From: an uncultured bacterium
GTDB lineage: Bacteria; Krumholzibacteriota; Krumholzibacteriia; LZORAL124-64-63
Assembly (NCBI GenBank): GCA_963732385.1
Contig: CAVSZB010000003.1
Span: 433,321 to 497,320 of the forward strand
Reading direction: 5' to 3'
DNA: 64,000 nt
In this document: positions 55,941-62,239 of the stretch, one piece after another
Numbering within the stretch: the first letter of the stretch is position 1
Layout: each line of letters begins with the position of its first letter
Notes under the pieces: model-generated
Told to the model about the DNA's origin: nothing
What the model saw: the letters and a program-made list of their open reading frames with translations, nothing else
The model's database searches: none
Made by a program: the position numbers and the translations under genes

Positions 55941-57305
55941 CAGGCTGCTGAAAAGCCCGCCTCACGCTCTCGTTGCTCGGCCCTCCGAGGTTTGCCGTGC
56001 GAGCTGACCTTCCGTCGTCCGATCAGTCGCCTTCTCGCCTCAGGGGCGTGTCATCGCTCCGTTCGACGTTTGATCGCGTTGTAGTGGCCAGTTCCTGGCC
56101 GATTCTCCGCGCTTCGGCGCCCCATCGGGGCGCGCCGTCTCGCTCAGCCGGTTTCATACAACAGCCGGCGCATCCGCAGCAGATTGTAGGCCGCTGCCGT
56201 GAAGCGGAAGATCCACGCGACCTTCTCGCGACCTCGGTGTCGCAGCTTGCGCAACAACCCGACCACCTTCATCCAGCCGAAGCACTCCTCGATCATCTTC
56301 CTTCGCCGCTGGCTGATCGCGTAGCCTTCGTGCCGCGTCGTCCGCTCATCCAGCGTCGTGTTCTGCTTGCAGACCACGTGCGGCGTGATGTCCATCGCCC
56401 GCAGCGTCTCGATGAAGACCGGCCTGTCATAGCCCTTGTCCGCGCCCATCGTTGCCCTCACGTGCGGCACGCTGCGCTCGGCCATCGTCACCGCCGCGTC
56501 GCACTCCGCCGTCCCAGTCGCCTTGATCACCTCGGTGTCCGCGATCAGGCCGTACCGATTGTCCGTCAGCAGGTGCCCGGCGTAGGACAGCTTCGCCTCC
56601 TTGCCGTTGCCTTTGCAGGCAAGCATGGCATCGGGATCGGTCTTGCTCTCGTGCGTCGCATTCGTGCGCTTCTCGCCGTGGAAGTCCACTTGCGGGTTGC
56701 GGCCGCCGCCCTGGCCGCCCTCGTCGTCGCTCTCGCTTTTGGCGCGGAAGCTCTTCAGGGAAGCGCAGGCCTCGATCAGCGTCCCGTCTACCGTGAAGTG
56801 TTCGCGCGAGAGCAGCCTGCCGGCCTTGGCCTGCTTGCCGATCTCCGCGAAGAACAGGTCGACGATCTCGCCTTCGAGCAGCCGGTCGCGGTTCTTGGTG
56901 AACGTGGTCGGGTGCCACACCTCGTCATCGACGCCCAGGCCGACGAACCAGCGGAACAGCAGGTTGTAGTCGAGGTGCTCGATCAGCTTGCGCTCGCTCG
57001 GGATCGAATAGAGGATCTGCAGCAGCAGGGCCCGCAGGAGGCGCTCCGGCGGGATCGAGCGGCGGCCATCGTCGGCGTACATGCGGGCGAACACCGGTTC
57101 GAGCCCCTTGAGCGCCTGGTTGACCATCTTGCGGATCGGCCGCAGGGGATGGTTCTGCGGGATCCGCGACTCGAGCGAAACGTAGCTGAACAGGCCGTCC
57201 TGGTGATGATCGCCACCGCGCATGCGGGCTCCTCCTTGGCTGCGGGGGAGTTTACGGCATGACGCGATCCGATGCGAGGGCGAGAGCTAGTTTTTCAGCA
57301 GCCTG
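55941..57305 (-). mobile_element. IS5-family insertion sequence, complete
   Basis: terminal inverted repeats CAGGCTGCTGAAAA / TTTTCAGCAGCCTG; CTAG duplicated at 55937-55940 and 57306-57309. Confidence 0.92.
56144..57223 (-). CDS. IS5-family DDE transposase
   Basis: HPLRPIR, GR.SIPPERLLRALLLQ.LYSI.SER, VDGTLIEA, ADKGYD, RK.IEE.FGW.K. Confidence 0.95.
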   Translation of the reverse strand: MRGGDHHQDGLFSYVSLESRIPQNHPLRPIRKMVNQALKGLEPVFARMYADDGRRSIPPERLLRALLLQILYSIPSERKLIEHLDYNLLFRWFVGLGVDDEVWHPTTFTKNRDRLLEGEIVDLFFAEIGKQAKAGRLLSREHFTVDGTLIEACASLKSFRAKSESDDEGGQGGGRNPQVDFHGEKRTNATHESKTDPDAMLACKGNGKEAKLSYAGHLLTDNRYGLIADTEVIKATGTAECDAAVTMAERSVPHVRATMGADKGYDRPVFIETLRAMDITPHVVCKQNTTLDERTTRHEGYAISQRRRKMIEECFGWMKVVGLLRKLRHRGREKVAWIFRFTAAAYNLLRMRRLLYETG

Positions 57306-57659
57306 CTAGTTTTTCAGCAGCCTGATAGCGCCCCAGGCTTCGCCGACTAAGTGACCCGCGGTCGATGCTCGCCGCTGGCGCGGGAGGCGAGGTCGCCGAA
57401 AATGGCCAGCGGTAAGTCTGTCAGTGCGCAGCACCGCGGTCACAGCCGCCGACTGACATCATCAGATGTCTGTTTTCAGGGGAAGCTTACGCTCGTACTC
57501 CACCTCTGCGGGCAGCACAAAGACAACGAACATAGTGCCATCCACACTCTTAATAGATGATGGCAGGCCCAACTCCACCCACCCCTCGGTCACACCAGCC
57601 ACAACTGCGCCGAAATGGTAGCCACTCCCAGCGATGAATGCAGCCAGATCATCAACCAC

Positions 57660-57865
57660 TCCAATCAGAAGCAACGGTGGCTGGCGACGGCGCTGCTGGA
57701 CATCGAGCCGCGCCTGCGTCGCGTGATGGGCTGTCTGCACCTGAAGAAGCTGCGTGAGGCGATCAAGCGTGAACTGCGAATCGAGACGAGCGAGCGGATG
57801 AGCGAGAAGGCGGAGTGAACGAGTCATGAGCCACGGAGATTTTCAACTGACTTTGGGATTGACCC
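57660..57865 (+). mobile_element. IS256-family right-end remnant
   Basis: SNQKQRWLATALLDIEPRLRRV.G..HL..LREA transposase C-terminus, then TTTCAACT...GGGATTGACCC terminal sequence. Confidence 0.75.
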
Positions 57866-58040
57866 GCACAGCTACACCAATGCATAATTGACTCTGAACT
57901 ATAAAAGCATGCTATCCTCGCCCCACGGTGACCGCAACGGAGACCGCGTGGACGGGATTATTGGAAGGGATAGCAGGCGATCGTTGGAAGTTCCGACACT
58001 ATTTGAGTCCACAGCTCCTTCAGCCTCGGAGGGTCGCGTC

Positions 58041-59408
58041 ATGTGTCGCTATATATTTGCAACTCTGATCATTATCCTGTTTTACGCTTGCCCGGCATTG
58101 GGACTAGGCGAGTGCGGGCATTATTGTTGGACTGATTATTATAATCCGAGCTGGGGGGGGGCCCTCGGAACCATGACTCCCTTGAGTTTTATTCCGGGCT
58201 CTACCACTGTGTTTTCGTGGGTCATAACAAATACTGGAGAGATAAGCCAGCAGGCCCAATTTTGCGCGGGCCCCGGTCTCGTTAGTGCCGTCATGCCGGG
58301 GATCGAGTTTGCATCTTGTCTCGATGACTGCTGCTATTGGATCTTAACAGAATGGCTTCCGGGAAGTGCGCGAACAATTACCGCGACCGTTGCCTGCCCG
58401 TTGGATGATCTGGTGCGATTTCAATTTGAAGATCTCTTAGGTTGGGATAATCTTTTGCGCTACTCTTGTGCGACACCCTACAGTGGAGGTGACGCAAGCA
58501 TAACGATTACGAAGTACCCAACGGCAGTGTCGACCCTTGATGGCATACGAGTTGAATTCGAAACAGGGGCTGCACTCGCCGGCAATTACCCGCGCGTGAG
58601 CTCACTAATAGCGCGGAGCGATGGTTCAATCCCGTCTCTTCCGCACTCCCCCAGAATAGAAAAAACTGGGACTACAGGATATGCGTACTTCGAAGCCAAT
58701 GTTCCGGACTATTATTTCGTCACCATCGGGGCGGAATTGGATCTGGCCTGTGAGACGGTAGGTCCCATTGTCGTATTGAGTGACGGCAACAATCCTCCTT
58801 TTGCCCAGCCTGAATACTCCCCTGATCCACCGACCGTCTTGGACGCGGTGAGTTTTTTGTCGAGAGCTTGGGACCATGAAGGAGATAGTATTTACTACAG
58901 CTGGGCATTCGGGGATTCCAATAGTAGCTACAATACCAGCAGCGATTCATCCGCTGTTCATATCTATCAGGAACCAGGCAACTACGTCGTAACTCTGACG
59001 GTTTCTGATGGCATGCTCCAGAGGAGTTACAATTTGTCGTTAGCTGTTAGCGAGGAAGATGTTTCTGGGGTCGATGATGGCTTGGTCGATTTTCCTGGCG
59101 GAGATGTTGGTAACTCACGCTGGTCTTCTCGGGACGTGCGTCTCGGCTGTTACCCGAATCCATTCAACCCATCGACTACATTATCCTTCGACCTACCTGA
59201 ACGGACTGAGGTGTATTTGCAAATATATGATCTGTCCGGCAGACTGATCAGAACGTTGATAGCTGGGGAGACTACTGAGCGGGGACAACGTGTGGAAGTT
59301 TGGAACGGTCGTGATGAATTGGGTAGGCTGGTTACTTCCGGCACGTACATCTACCGCCTGCAGGCCGGTGGGTTTAGCGAGGCGAAACGAATGGTCCTGA
59401 TAAAGTGA
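58041..59408 (+). CDS. secreted PKD-domain protein with FlgD-Ig tail
   Basis: signal peptide; D.EGD...Y.W.FGD...H.Y..PG.Y.V.LTVSDG; CYPNPFNPSTT...WNGRDE.G; lower GC than core genes. Confidence 0.85.
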   Translation: MCRYIFATLIIILFYACPALGLGECGHYCWTDYYNPSWGGALGTMTPLSFIPGSTTVFSWVITNTGEISQQAQFCAGPGLVSAVMPGIEFASCLDDCCYWILTEWLPGSARTITATVACPLDDLVRFQFEDLLGWDNLLRYSCATPYSGGDASITITKYPTAVSTLDGIRVEFETGAALAGNYPRVSSLIARSDGSIPSLPHSPRIEKTGTTGYAYFEANVPDYYFVTIGAELDLACETVGPIVVLSDGNNPPFAQPEYSPDPPTVLDAVSFLSRAWDHEGDSIYYSWAFGDSNSSYNTSSDSSAVHIYQEPGNYVVTLTVSDGMLQRSYNLSLAVSEEDVSGVDDGLVDFPGGDVGNSRWSSRDVRLGCYPNPFNPSTTLSFDLPERTEVYLQIYDLSGRLIRTLIAGETTERGQRVEVWNGRDELGRLVTSGTYIYRLQAGGFSEAKRMVLIK

Positions 59409-59834
59409 TCTGGATTGTTCTTTTGAGGATTGGGGGCGGCGCCGAGGATCAAGGCAGGCGCCAAGCGGCCTGATCAACGCGGCTTCCACTTGTAAGCGCC
59501 GGCGCAATAGTGCGGTATCCTTGGCGGCCGCCGGTGCCCACAGCATAACCGGACGCCGCCGTTCAGTTTGTGTGAATGTAGCGACCACCTATTCTGTCCA
59601 CTCACCTGACGCAAAATCAAGTGACACGTCCCCGCTGATCGCCAGCAGTCCGTGACGCAAGAGTACCACTTCCACGGCTCGTCGTCGAGCCCCTGCCCTC
59701 TGGCGGCGCGTGGCCGCCTTGCGGCTCGGCACGCGCATCTCTGATATTACTTCTCTGCGGAACATTGTACGGTCAGGCAGCGCTACGCGGTCGTCGCGGT
59801 ACGCCTCGCGCGCCGTTCTGCCGCCCAGCACGGG

Positions 59835-60431
59835 GCACTCAAAGAGGTTTTCAAGGGCGCTGCGACAACCGTCATCCTCCAGGCTCACGACGAGCCTCTT
59901 TATCAACACTACCAGAGCCTGCTCGACGGCGGGACCAAGCCCAATCTCGCCAAGCTGACCATCGCGCGGCAACTCGCCGCCATCACGCTTGCCCTCTGGC
60001 GCGAGAAGGAGGTCTACGATCCCAAGAAACTGACCCATGCATTCTGACGCGGCGCCAGGTCGCCGGAGCCGTCACATACGGTCGCGTACAACGATCCCTT
60101 ATGGCACGGGCACAGTGGTTACAGGGGAGAGTATCCGTTTCTTCCTTGGTCCCGGCACGTCCGGAGTCCCGACCTGTAGGCTATGCTCCCCTGCAGAACC
60201 AAATGAAGCAATGGGCCAACGAGTCCCTGATGGAAGGATGGTTCCCTCCCCATGGAGGAGAACGACGTCGCTGGAACGCCTGGTGTGAGTGGGATCAAGC
60301 GCCGGCCGACAGGCAGTTGAATCGGCTCCCGAACCGGCCTGGACGCAGCACAACGGCGGACGCTGGCTGCCAGACCTCACGCAGACAGCGTGGCGGGGAA
60401 ATGCGTCTTGACAGCCTGCCCCATGGAAGGA
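59835..60431 (+). mobile_element. IS110-family (IS1111-type layout) right-end remnant: transposase C-terminus plus 3' non-coding end
   Basis: ALKEVFKGAATTVI...LYQHYQSLLDGGTKPNLAKLTIARQLAAITLALW...YDP, stop at 60047; about 380 nt structured non-coding region; TTGACA at 60408 near the end. Confidence 0.78.
60110..60300 (+). ncRNA. candidate IS110 bridge/seek RNA (boundaries approximate)
   Basis: stem CAGGGGAG...CTCCCCTG enclosing a large internal loop; ATGGAAGGA and CTTCCTT match the element end at 60423-60433. Confidence 0.6.
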
Positions 60432-60648
60432 AGCCGGTGTCTGCCCGAAACCCCCGCCCCGAATCGACCAGCGCGGGGTTAAGGGGGAGACGCCAAATCT
60501 ATCTCGGCCTTCCCGCCAAGTGATTTCGGACGGCCCCGTTGCCGTTCGCGAATCTCACCGTTCGTCCAAGGCGGAAAGGTGGTAGAATCGAAACCTCGCC
60601 CATCTGGCTGCATCGCTATGCCTGAAGGTTTGAAGGGGGGGCTCGACC

Positions 60649-62239
60649 ATGAGACTCGCCATTCGTGCTTCGTGGGCTGTTGTGGCTTTGATGCTGTGGT
60701 GGGTTCCGGCCTGCGAAGCCGCGACATTCAACGTCACGCCAGACGGCACCGGGGACTTCGCCACCATTCAGGCCGCCATCGACGCGGCCGCCCCCGGCGA
60801 CACAGTGCAACTTGCCGATGGCGTTTTCACCGGATCAGGCAACCGCGATCTCCTGTTTGGCGGCAAGCCGCTGACCCTGCGCTCGGCGGGCGGTGACGCA
60901 GCGGCCTGTGTCATCGACGCCCAGGGCAGCGAATCGGCTCCGCATCGGGCCGCCTGGCTGCACGACCTGCCCGCACCGGGCGCCCTGCTCGAAGGGATCA
61001 CCTTCCGCAACGGCTGGAACGACGGCGCTGGCAGCGGCGTGTACGCCTACAACTGCCGGGTCGTGGCGCGGCACTGCGTCTTCCGGGACAATCGCGGAGC
61101 CTTCTACTTAGGCGGGGCTGGTATGGCCATCCAGAATGGCGAGGCCGTCCTGGAGGATTGCCTCTTCGAAGGAAATGTCTCGAGCAGTCCCATGCCCATG
61201 GCGGGTGGCGCCGGAGGACTCTTCGCCTCGAACACGACGGTCTCGCTTGAGCGCTGCGATTTCCTGAACAACCGAGCGGGCAGCAGCTTCGACAGTGGCG
61301 GAAGAGGCGGCGGCATGATTGCCGTCAGCTGTGCCATGGCGGCGACCGCGTGCACGTTCCGCGGGAACCAGGTCTCGCCCAGCATCATGTCGTCTCCCCG
61401 AGGCGGCGGGCTTTTTGTAGAGGATGGCACGGCGGAGTTGGCCGATTGCCTGTTCGTGGAAAACGCCGTGATCGAGTACGGGGAGGGCGGCGCAGTGGCC
61501 ACCTACGGCACGCCCAACCTGGTCATGACGAACTGCACGCTTCAGCACAACAACGGCTTGGGGGCGGTCCACCTCCGGGGCGGCACGGTGTCCCTCGAAC
61601 GGAGCATCATTGCCGACAGCTATGTGATCTACATGGGTGGCGAAGAACCGGGCGTTGCCTTCATCGTGGATGGAGGTGCCGTAACGCTCTCCGCCTGCGA
61701 TGTCTTCGGCCACACGGGGGGCGATTGGGTGGGACCGATCGCTGATCAACGCTATCTGCGTGGCAACTTCACCGCCGATCCCTGCTACTGCGACGCCGCC
61801 GGAGGAGACTTCCGGCTCTGCGCTGATTCTGCCTGTGCGCCCGAGCACAACCCGTGGGGCCAGAACGTGCTGGTGGGGGCGTTCGATGTAGGCTGTGCTT
61901 CGTGTGGATGTTCCCTGCCTGTCGGGATCGACGAGGGACACGACCCTGGCGCCACTCCCCGCACGATTGTGTCTTCACGGAGCGACGCCCAACCCCTTCA
62001 ACCCAAGAACCACGATCCGCTTCGACCTCCCGGCTGCAGGCAACATCCGCCTCGCCGTCTACGACCTCGCCGGCCGACTCGTCCGGGTCCTCGTAGAGGG
62101 GGAAATCCCCGCGGGGAGCCACGAGGCGGTTTGGGATGGCAGAGACTCCACCGGTCGCTCCGCGCCCTCTGGCAGCTACCTCGCCCGGCTGGTCGCGGGG
62201 GGGAAGGTGGAGGTTGTGAGGATGGGGCTGGTGCGGTGA
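60649..62239 (+). pseudogene. secreted parallel beta-helix protein with FlgD-Ig tail, +1 frameshift at C4 run 61957-61960
   Basis: V.PDGTGDF.TIQAAI, C.F..N....GGG repeats; removing one C joins it in frame to PNPFNPRTTI...MGLVR; may be a sequencing error. Confidence 0.78.
62009..62239 (+). repeat. sorting-tail DNA repeat, copy 1
   Basis: ungapped match to 63122-63352 with 27 differences in 231 nt by manual count. Confidence 0.9.

Follow-up and report, generated by a model that had tools for sequence, protein, structure and literature searches.

The systems closest to the element described here are the IS1111 seekRNA elements (ISEc11, ISPa11 and ISKpn4; Siddiquee 2024, PMC11187229) and the bridge-RNA elements IS621 and ISCro4 (Durrant 2024, PMC11208160; Hiraizumi 2024, PMC11208158). 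IS1111 elements combine a DEDD transposase of 330-350 aa with a long downstream non-coding region, subterminal inverted repeats that have a 7-nt extension on the left, a junction promoter, a top-strand guide 5' of the bottom-strand guide, and repeated intergenic targets (PMC11187229); 93% of the IS1111 group have a predicted bridge RNA (PMC11208160). We analysed a remnant of an element with the same features in a stretch of 64,000 nucleotides from an uncultured bacterium (the window, to which all positions refer), and its layout is the IS1111-type one described in the accessible parts of PMC11208160 and PMC11187229. It is unlike the IS1111 elements in that its full-length protein relative, P0002, lacks the GL-P----SG motif, the inverted repeat is imperfect, and the donor loop is a simple internal loop and not a multiloop; this copy is also without enzyme or left end.

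With IS621 and ISCro4 the element shares a target loop followed by a donor loop, four guides, and one dinucleotide core common to both junctions. Read on its minus strand it has, like IS621, a CT core in which the C is variable and second guides that end in AG plus two bases, and its second guide matches five flank bases, as in IS621. Unlike IS621, it carries the RNA in the right end, its protein is weakly similar (profile E 0.001), its first guide pairs with up to nine flank bases, mostly without CT facing the core, and slides by 0-2 nt, and a 2-nt unpaired stretch belongs to its first, not its second, donor guide. The remnant also resembles ssr9 of ISPpu9, a small-RNA piece that lies apart from its transposase; as presented in the available text of PMC12288879, ssr9 has defined ends and several copies, whereas the remnant is a single deletion product.

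Family and extent of the remnant

We read positions 59838-60429 (plus strand) as what is left of a ~1.59-kb IS110-family element of IS1111-type layout: the last 69 codons of its transposase and the entire right end. The coding part (59838-60047) is the 3' end of a DEDD transposase gene for 350 aa, of which the final 69 codons and the stop remain, and the non-coding right end (60048-60429) is complete at 382 nt. A first-pass annotation had already named an IS110-family remnant, and placed it at 59835-60433. The stretch is indeed the tail of an IS110 element, and every motif listed in that annotation sits at its given coordinates, but homology to relatives begins at codon L282 (59838, not 59835) and the element ends at 60429.

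Among 944 candidate longer proteins, 887 match the 70-aa remnant peptide; the best is P0002 (350 aa), whose C-terminus is 100% identical to the peptide over 68 aa. This identity bears out the family assignment, and with it the alignment of the peptide to IS110 transposases that had been proposed as a check. P0002 carries PF01548 and PF02371, both over cut-off, and residues D8, E54/55, D87 and D90 are conserved in its alignment with relatives. The remnant has lost residues 1-281, including all four of these positions and the S251-253 cluster; because it keeps residues 282-350 only, its assignment by IS110 DEDD residues and PF02371 runs through the identical full-length protein. The 70-aa peptide alone gave zero Pfam or NCBIfam matches. 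Against NCBIfam NF033542, P0002 scores 106 (E 1.6e-30), under the cut-off of 140; a profile search reached IS621 at E 0.001 only, and phmmer of P0002 against PDB returned no match. In place of the GL-P----S(T)G motif of the IS1111 group, the alignment reads GL(A/G)(V/I)V(T/M)RSSSDW and P0002 reads GLAVVTRSSSD. The class is the IS110 family with an IS1111-type layout, a name that follows the layout and not a placement in a protein clade.

Junctions, core dinucleotide and ends

We gathered homologous loci from metagenomes (80), genomes (80) and the phylum (13), and the motif analysis used 173 records including the window. Since these records contain two-tool duplicates and about 40 members of a single multi-copy family, tests were run on unique pairs or distinct guides; the homologues are related, so that the shuffle tests reported below overstate significance. 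Intact elements are ~1.58-1.60 kb long (12 examined); the medians are 148 nt for the left end and 388 nt for the right, the short left and long right of the IS1111 type. Across 78 aligned right ends, conservation is high at ~60112-60262 and again at 60405-60430, and then drops sharply after an AG. This AG (CT on the minus strand), at 60428-60429 on the plus strand of the window, is the core dinucleotide and the right end of the element. It is present at 116/126 right and 114/119 left junctions, these being the junctions that could be extracted from the 173 records; AA takes its place at 5/126 right junctions, which fits a tolerated first core base. The right end had been expected near 60430, and conservation does stop after AG, so that the last base of the element is 60429. 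The five-base core AAGGA, proposed as shared between the two guide segments, was dropped: the core is AG instead, the flanks diverge directly past it, and the GA that follows is constant in the RNA (113/122) and equals the flank in just 40/110 loci.

An empty paralogue elsewhere in this genome (assembly G000; 3.82 Mb, 9 contigs, 95.8% complete) fixes the junction. This site, at C6:1857-1913, contains a single AG and aligns with the window from AG onward (87.8% over 49 nt), so the comparison of filled and empty sites that had been suggested places the junction at AG. Upstream of its AG, the empty site reads CCCGT, which matches the left target guide CCTGT (see below) at 4/5 positions plus a G-U pair.

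An imperfect inverted repeat of ~15 bp is found 7 nt in from the left end, and from the right end it is separated by 3 nt and the core, in 4/4 elements examined; its right copy in the window is at 60410-60424 (plus strand), 3 nt inside the core. Overlapping it is the outward -35 box TTGACA (60408-60413, plus strand), whose partner -10 is lost here. In computed circle junctions of intact relatives, a 17-nt spacer separates the -35 from a -10-like hexamer in 95/95 complete elements, and most of the 95 have TTGACN with CATCAT/CATTAT. These computed junctions agree with the earlier view of TTGACA as the -35 half of a predicted circle-junction promoter in intact relatives.

Several other features were seen at the ends of homologues. 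At locus L019 the right end runs directly into the start of a left end, as in a circle or tandem. Five others (L038, L061, L137, L208 and L210) have an extra AAG between the core and the guide-matching flank at right junctions, and its occurrence in several unrelated elements suggests a recurrent 3-nt imprecision there. The left end of homologues forms a hairpin over the transposase ribosome-binding site in 116/148 loci, and a conserved GGAGAAC at the RNA 3' end (60257-60263 in the window) is complementary to the hairpin strand that blocks this site; together, GGAGAAC and the hairpin may form a translational switch.

The break and the surrounding genes

Immediately left of the remnant, on the minus strand, is the right end of an unrelated transposase with a PF00665 integrase core (59577-59836; last ~81 codons of ~324 aa); the 81 aa are 89% identical to P0122, a 324-aa PF00665 transposase. 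Sediment contigs (95-99% alike) run on past 59838 into the missing transposase codons upstream; at 59836 others pass into different DNA, that of another element. Because contigs diverge at 59836/59838 and the neighbour is a transposase C-terminus, we infer that a single deletion joined the IS110 remnant head-to-head with a second broken transposon. A MITE or other repeat as the left neighbour was dropped as a candidate, this neighbour being a transposase C-terminus.

The coding and non-coding parts of the remnant both lie ~0-5% from sister copies; contig X7 differs from it at 9/244, 3/139 and 2/120 positions, about equally in coding and non-coding sequence. Since the two parts have diverged about equally, the intact appearance of the RNA requires no selection, and would be explained most simply by a recent break.

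Relatives at L011, L012, L015, L101 and L106 also hold partial copies, broken at different points. Elsewhere in the window, an intact-looking IS5-family transposase (NF033581 over cut-off) lies at 56144-57223 on the minus strand, and a short ORF at 57615-57818 (plus strand) resembles the C-terminus of another transposase, possibly an IS256-like one. Downstream (60649-62239, plus strand) is a beta-helix gene whose C-terminal sorting-type tail is in another frame (ORF 61895-62239), a change that is either a frameshift or an assembly error.

A conserved bridge RNA with one loop for the target and one for the donor

The conserved core of the bridge RNA spans 60116-60263 (plus strand; RNA ends predicted) and contains a target hairpin, a donor hairpin and a short terminal hairpin. 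We aligned the window with 48 of 54 non-redundant homologues (49 sequences), leaving out six length or divergence outliers. In the consensus fold, 99.2% of cells pair, and the stems contain 49 double changes as compared with 17.3±2.7 in shuffled alignments (0/500 shuffles reach it); slid controls gave at most 5 double changes, and once 8. By contrast with the comparative result, single-sequence folding equals shuffles, with z -0.05 for 60048-60433 and z 0.17 for the core, and Rfam yielded only two chance-level matches and no family. The case rests on comparison for this reason.

The target-binding hairpin (60122-60193, plus strand) has a large internal loop closed by CAGGGGAG at 60122-60129 and CTCCCCTG at 60186-60193, and the donor-binding hairpin, with its own internal loop, follows at 60196-60244 (plus strand); both rest on the consensus fold and pair counts. 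The stem that had been picked out earlier around a large internal loop is thus that of the target hairpin. The fold that had been suggested for the sequence from 60048 onward is at shuffle level when taken alone, and the comparative fold of homologues supports the hairpins; the proposal that target and donor loops are distinct parts of one bridge RNA is in this way upheld by 49 sequences. The remnant retains all invariant RNA positions and stems.

Guides in the target loop covary with the flanks

We assign four guides to the bridge RNA, two per loop, by sequence comparison. The first-pass annotation had claimed two; one in each loop was correct, and those at 60173-60181 and 60203-60209 were missed. 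The right (top-strand) target guide is GTTTCTTCCT (60137-60146, plus strand), followed by an invariant TGG at 60147-60149 that is found after this guide in 148/150 loci. In the window, CTTC of the guide pairs with GAAG of the flank, and CT faces the core. The segment CTTCCTT (60141-60147), reported earlier as the reverse complement of 60427-60433, is exactly that and lies in the target loop, but its last T is the invariant T of the TGG motif.

Over 76 unique pairs, the right target guide agrees with its own right flank at 6.25/8 positions as compared with 3.85±0.14 for shuffled pairs, the score being the best of three registers for real and shuffled pairs alike. Counted over 46 distinct guides, target guides agree with their own flanks at 5.46/7 positions (3.24±0.16 shuffled). 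Thirty of the 46 match the flank at >=6/7 positions, where 2.6 are expected, and 16/46 match at <6/7; among the 26 guides that are far from the consensus, 16 match at >=6/7. The guide-target covariation that had been named as a check is therefore present over 46 distinct guides. In the window copy itself, the right flank agrees with the guide at just 4/8 positions.

The left (bottom-strand) target guide, CCTGT followed by the core AG and GC, lies at 60173-60181 (plus strand). Its first five bases (60173-60177) agree with the left flank at 4.05/5 positions, as compared with 2.47±0.12 shuffled (58 pairs). Both target guides covary with the flanks, a pattern consistent with a target loop that pairs with both target strands. 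Relative to the fixed TGG, the first guide is in register 0, 1, 2 or mixed in 24, 4, 3 and 1 of 32 clearly matched guides, the guide of the window being in register 2; the left target guide keeps its register in 33/35 such loci. The GC after the left-guide core equals the dinucleotide with which the left end begins, and we consider these putative handshake bases. The pair is GC or GT in the target loop, and the left end starts with GC in 98/99 loci. In IS621, the available text of PMC11208158 describes an RTG that ends with A79-G80 plus handshake bases 81-82. Since these positions barely vary, AG plus handshake is a matter of consistency and not of covariation.

Guides in the donor loop

The right (top-strand) donor guide is ATGAAGC (60203-60209, plus strand), followed by two unpaired nucleotides and TGG. 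It is complementary at 6/7 positions to GCATCAT, the left-end start of intact relatives, and covaries with it (A with T in 8/8, G with C in 81/84). An alternative guide, GATG/AATG at 60210-60213, was dropped after it gave 11 A-C and 3 C mismatches as compared with 1 in the chosen register. The left (bottom-strand) donor guide consists of ATGGA, the core AG and GA (60230-60238, plus strand). As had been noticed earlier, the segment ATGGAAGGA at these positions is identical to 60423-60431. Its ATGGAAG does lie in the donor loop, but the last GA is a near-constant dinucleotide, which we regard as putative handshake bases; the G faces G or A in 104/110 loci. Guide plus core is identical to the element end in 103/110 loci, and an A/G position of the guide tracks A/G in the end in 109/110; at the second donor-loop base, GG goes with GG in 7/7, but GA with mixed flanks. 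The two covarying positions, each of which draws its changes from one or two lineages, point to a donor loop that would pair with the two strands of the end-to-end junction. As in the target loop (60137-60146 before 60173-60179), the top-strand guide precedes the bottom-strand guide. The matches of both loops to the element's own right junction, on which the original proposal was built, are real, but they are expected of any such element because this junction consists of left donor, core and right target.

The element lies in an intergenic repeat

The right half of the target (60430-60478, plus strand) belongs to an intergenic repeat with a 22-nt core, present in 11 copies in G000. The repeat was found in both same-genus genomes searched and in none of the other 38, except for one match within a coding-like stretch. 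IS110 insertion into repeated intergenic DNA is already known, according to the available text of PMC12288879 and 10.64898/2026.03.19.712850. The best genome-wide match to both guides (14/15 nt, at C5:403288) falls within this repeat family, on the opposite strand, and is unoccupied. One site in G000 matches the guides with <=1 mismatch, a number equalled by 10% of 150 permuted guides, and four match with <=2 mismatches, equalled by 19%. The number of guide-matching sites alone is not significant; what stands out is their placement, three of the four falling in the repeat family that flanks the element.

The repeat also abuts two unrelated IS110 elements in G000, a 299-aa piece (C5:387564) and a 411-aa gene (C6:53822), and may be a general IS110 hot spot. 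Its copies sit where genes for exported proteins and transposons are abundant.

An RNA-guided element, probably broken later by a deletion

We hold with high confidence that a ~1.59-kb RNA-guided IS110-family insertion sequence inserted at AG and was later broken by a deletion, leaving a relic. An intact element would have inserted at the AG core within the intergenic repeat, and a later deletion would have taken away the left target flank along with the left end and 281/350 codons, bringing what was left next to the 3' portion of a neighbouring DDE transposon. The boundaries, core, fold, four guides, repeat and absence of the enzyme come from sequence comparison; for intact relatives, we infer transcription, processing and strand exchange. 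By analogy with published IS110/IS1111 work, the excised circle would bring TTGACA to the left-end -10 box, and a transcript would cross the transposase into the right end. Loop 1 of the RNA would pair with both target strands, and loop 2 with both circle-junction strands. The remnant can no longer form a circle and is most probably inert.

The first-pass annotation had suggested that the orphan RNA may be usable in trans by an intact recombinase elsewhere in the genome, and this part of it finds no support: the 95.8%-complete, nine-contig assembly has no cognate enzyme or left end. A tblastn search of G000 with P0002 and a search with the alignment-A1 profile found the remnant only, a left-end motif search found none, and an RNA model search found no second RNA copy; the element is present once. 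The combination of both ends and a cognate enzyme, as an active or trans-mobilisable element would have, is missing from G000. The idea of a large cargo element bounded by a far-off left end was dropped as well, no such end being found at <=2 mismatches in an IS context. A broader form of the suggestion, in which upstream read-through supplies the RNA to another recombinase or to a cognate one that is unassembled or incoming, can draw on the retention of all invariant RNA positions and stems, on an upstream gene (57888-59408) on the same strand as the RNA, on near-identical full elements in sediment metagenomes, and on the unoccupied 14/15-nt match in the genome; in the available text of PMC13626964, extended read-through transcripts work for IS621, and in that of PMC11208160 and PMC11187229, RNA given in trans works. 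We consider it improbable all the same. The other IS110 proteins of G000 (402 aa in three copies, 411 aa, and the 299-aa piece) are only 21-25% identical, and these three types have right ends of their own. With the left end missing there is no donor substrate; no promoter-like site lies within 59300-60700; and the RNA part is kept no better than the dead coding part. Contigs from RNA libraries (X13, X16) cover parts of the element but stem from full-length sister copies.

It is less probable still that the piece is a non-autonomous module, excised and moved by bridge machinery in the manner of ssr9, even though solo RNA modules are described for ISPpu9 (available text of PMC12288879), flexible ends and half-match recombination are reported in the accessible parts of two preprints, and further partial copies exist at L011, L012 and L015. 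G000 has one copy; its left break is within two coding regions, with no core common to both sides and no donor-like sequence, and the partial copies in relatives break elsewhere. That the loop-junction matches are a chance likeness in a purine-rich, decayed tail is scarcely credible: the matches are short, one of 7 nt being weak by itself, the fold z is ~0 and there is no Rfam family, but 46 distinct guides covary with their flanks and the stems carry compensatory changes. Insertion followed by a deletion is the reading that we retain.

Discussion

The locus itself is an ordinary relic, a real and well-resolved bridge RNA in a dead element. Its relatives may form a divergent clade of bridge recombinases in which the RNA is the mirror image of that of IS621, with the CT core and the AG-plus-handshake geometry on the strand opposite the transposase, and in which the first target guide reads up to nine bases and slides by 0-2 nt while the other is fixed; the arguments for and against this reading seem to us evenly poised. 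If it is true, a plain strand flip would account for the reversed guide order that PMC11187229 leaves open for IS1111 elements. Neither the strand-flip geometry nor the sliding register appears in the passages of running text searched in PMC11208160, PMC11208158, PMC13604230 and 10.1101/2025.05.14.653916; flexible ends are already reported in two preprints.

What makes the remnant valuable is that it opens up a clade remote from the enzymes tested so far, with 46 target guides that differ naturally and a full four-guide map. P0002 and the remnant RNA would make a testable cognate pair, and the strand-flipped geometry and sliding register would bear on the reprogramming of right-end bridge RNAs and on their off-target rules.
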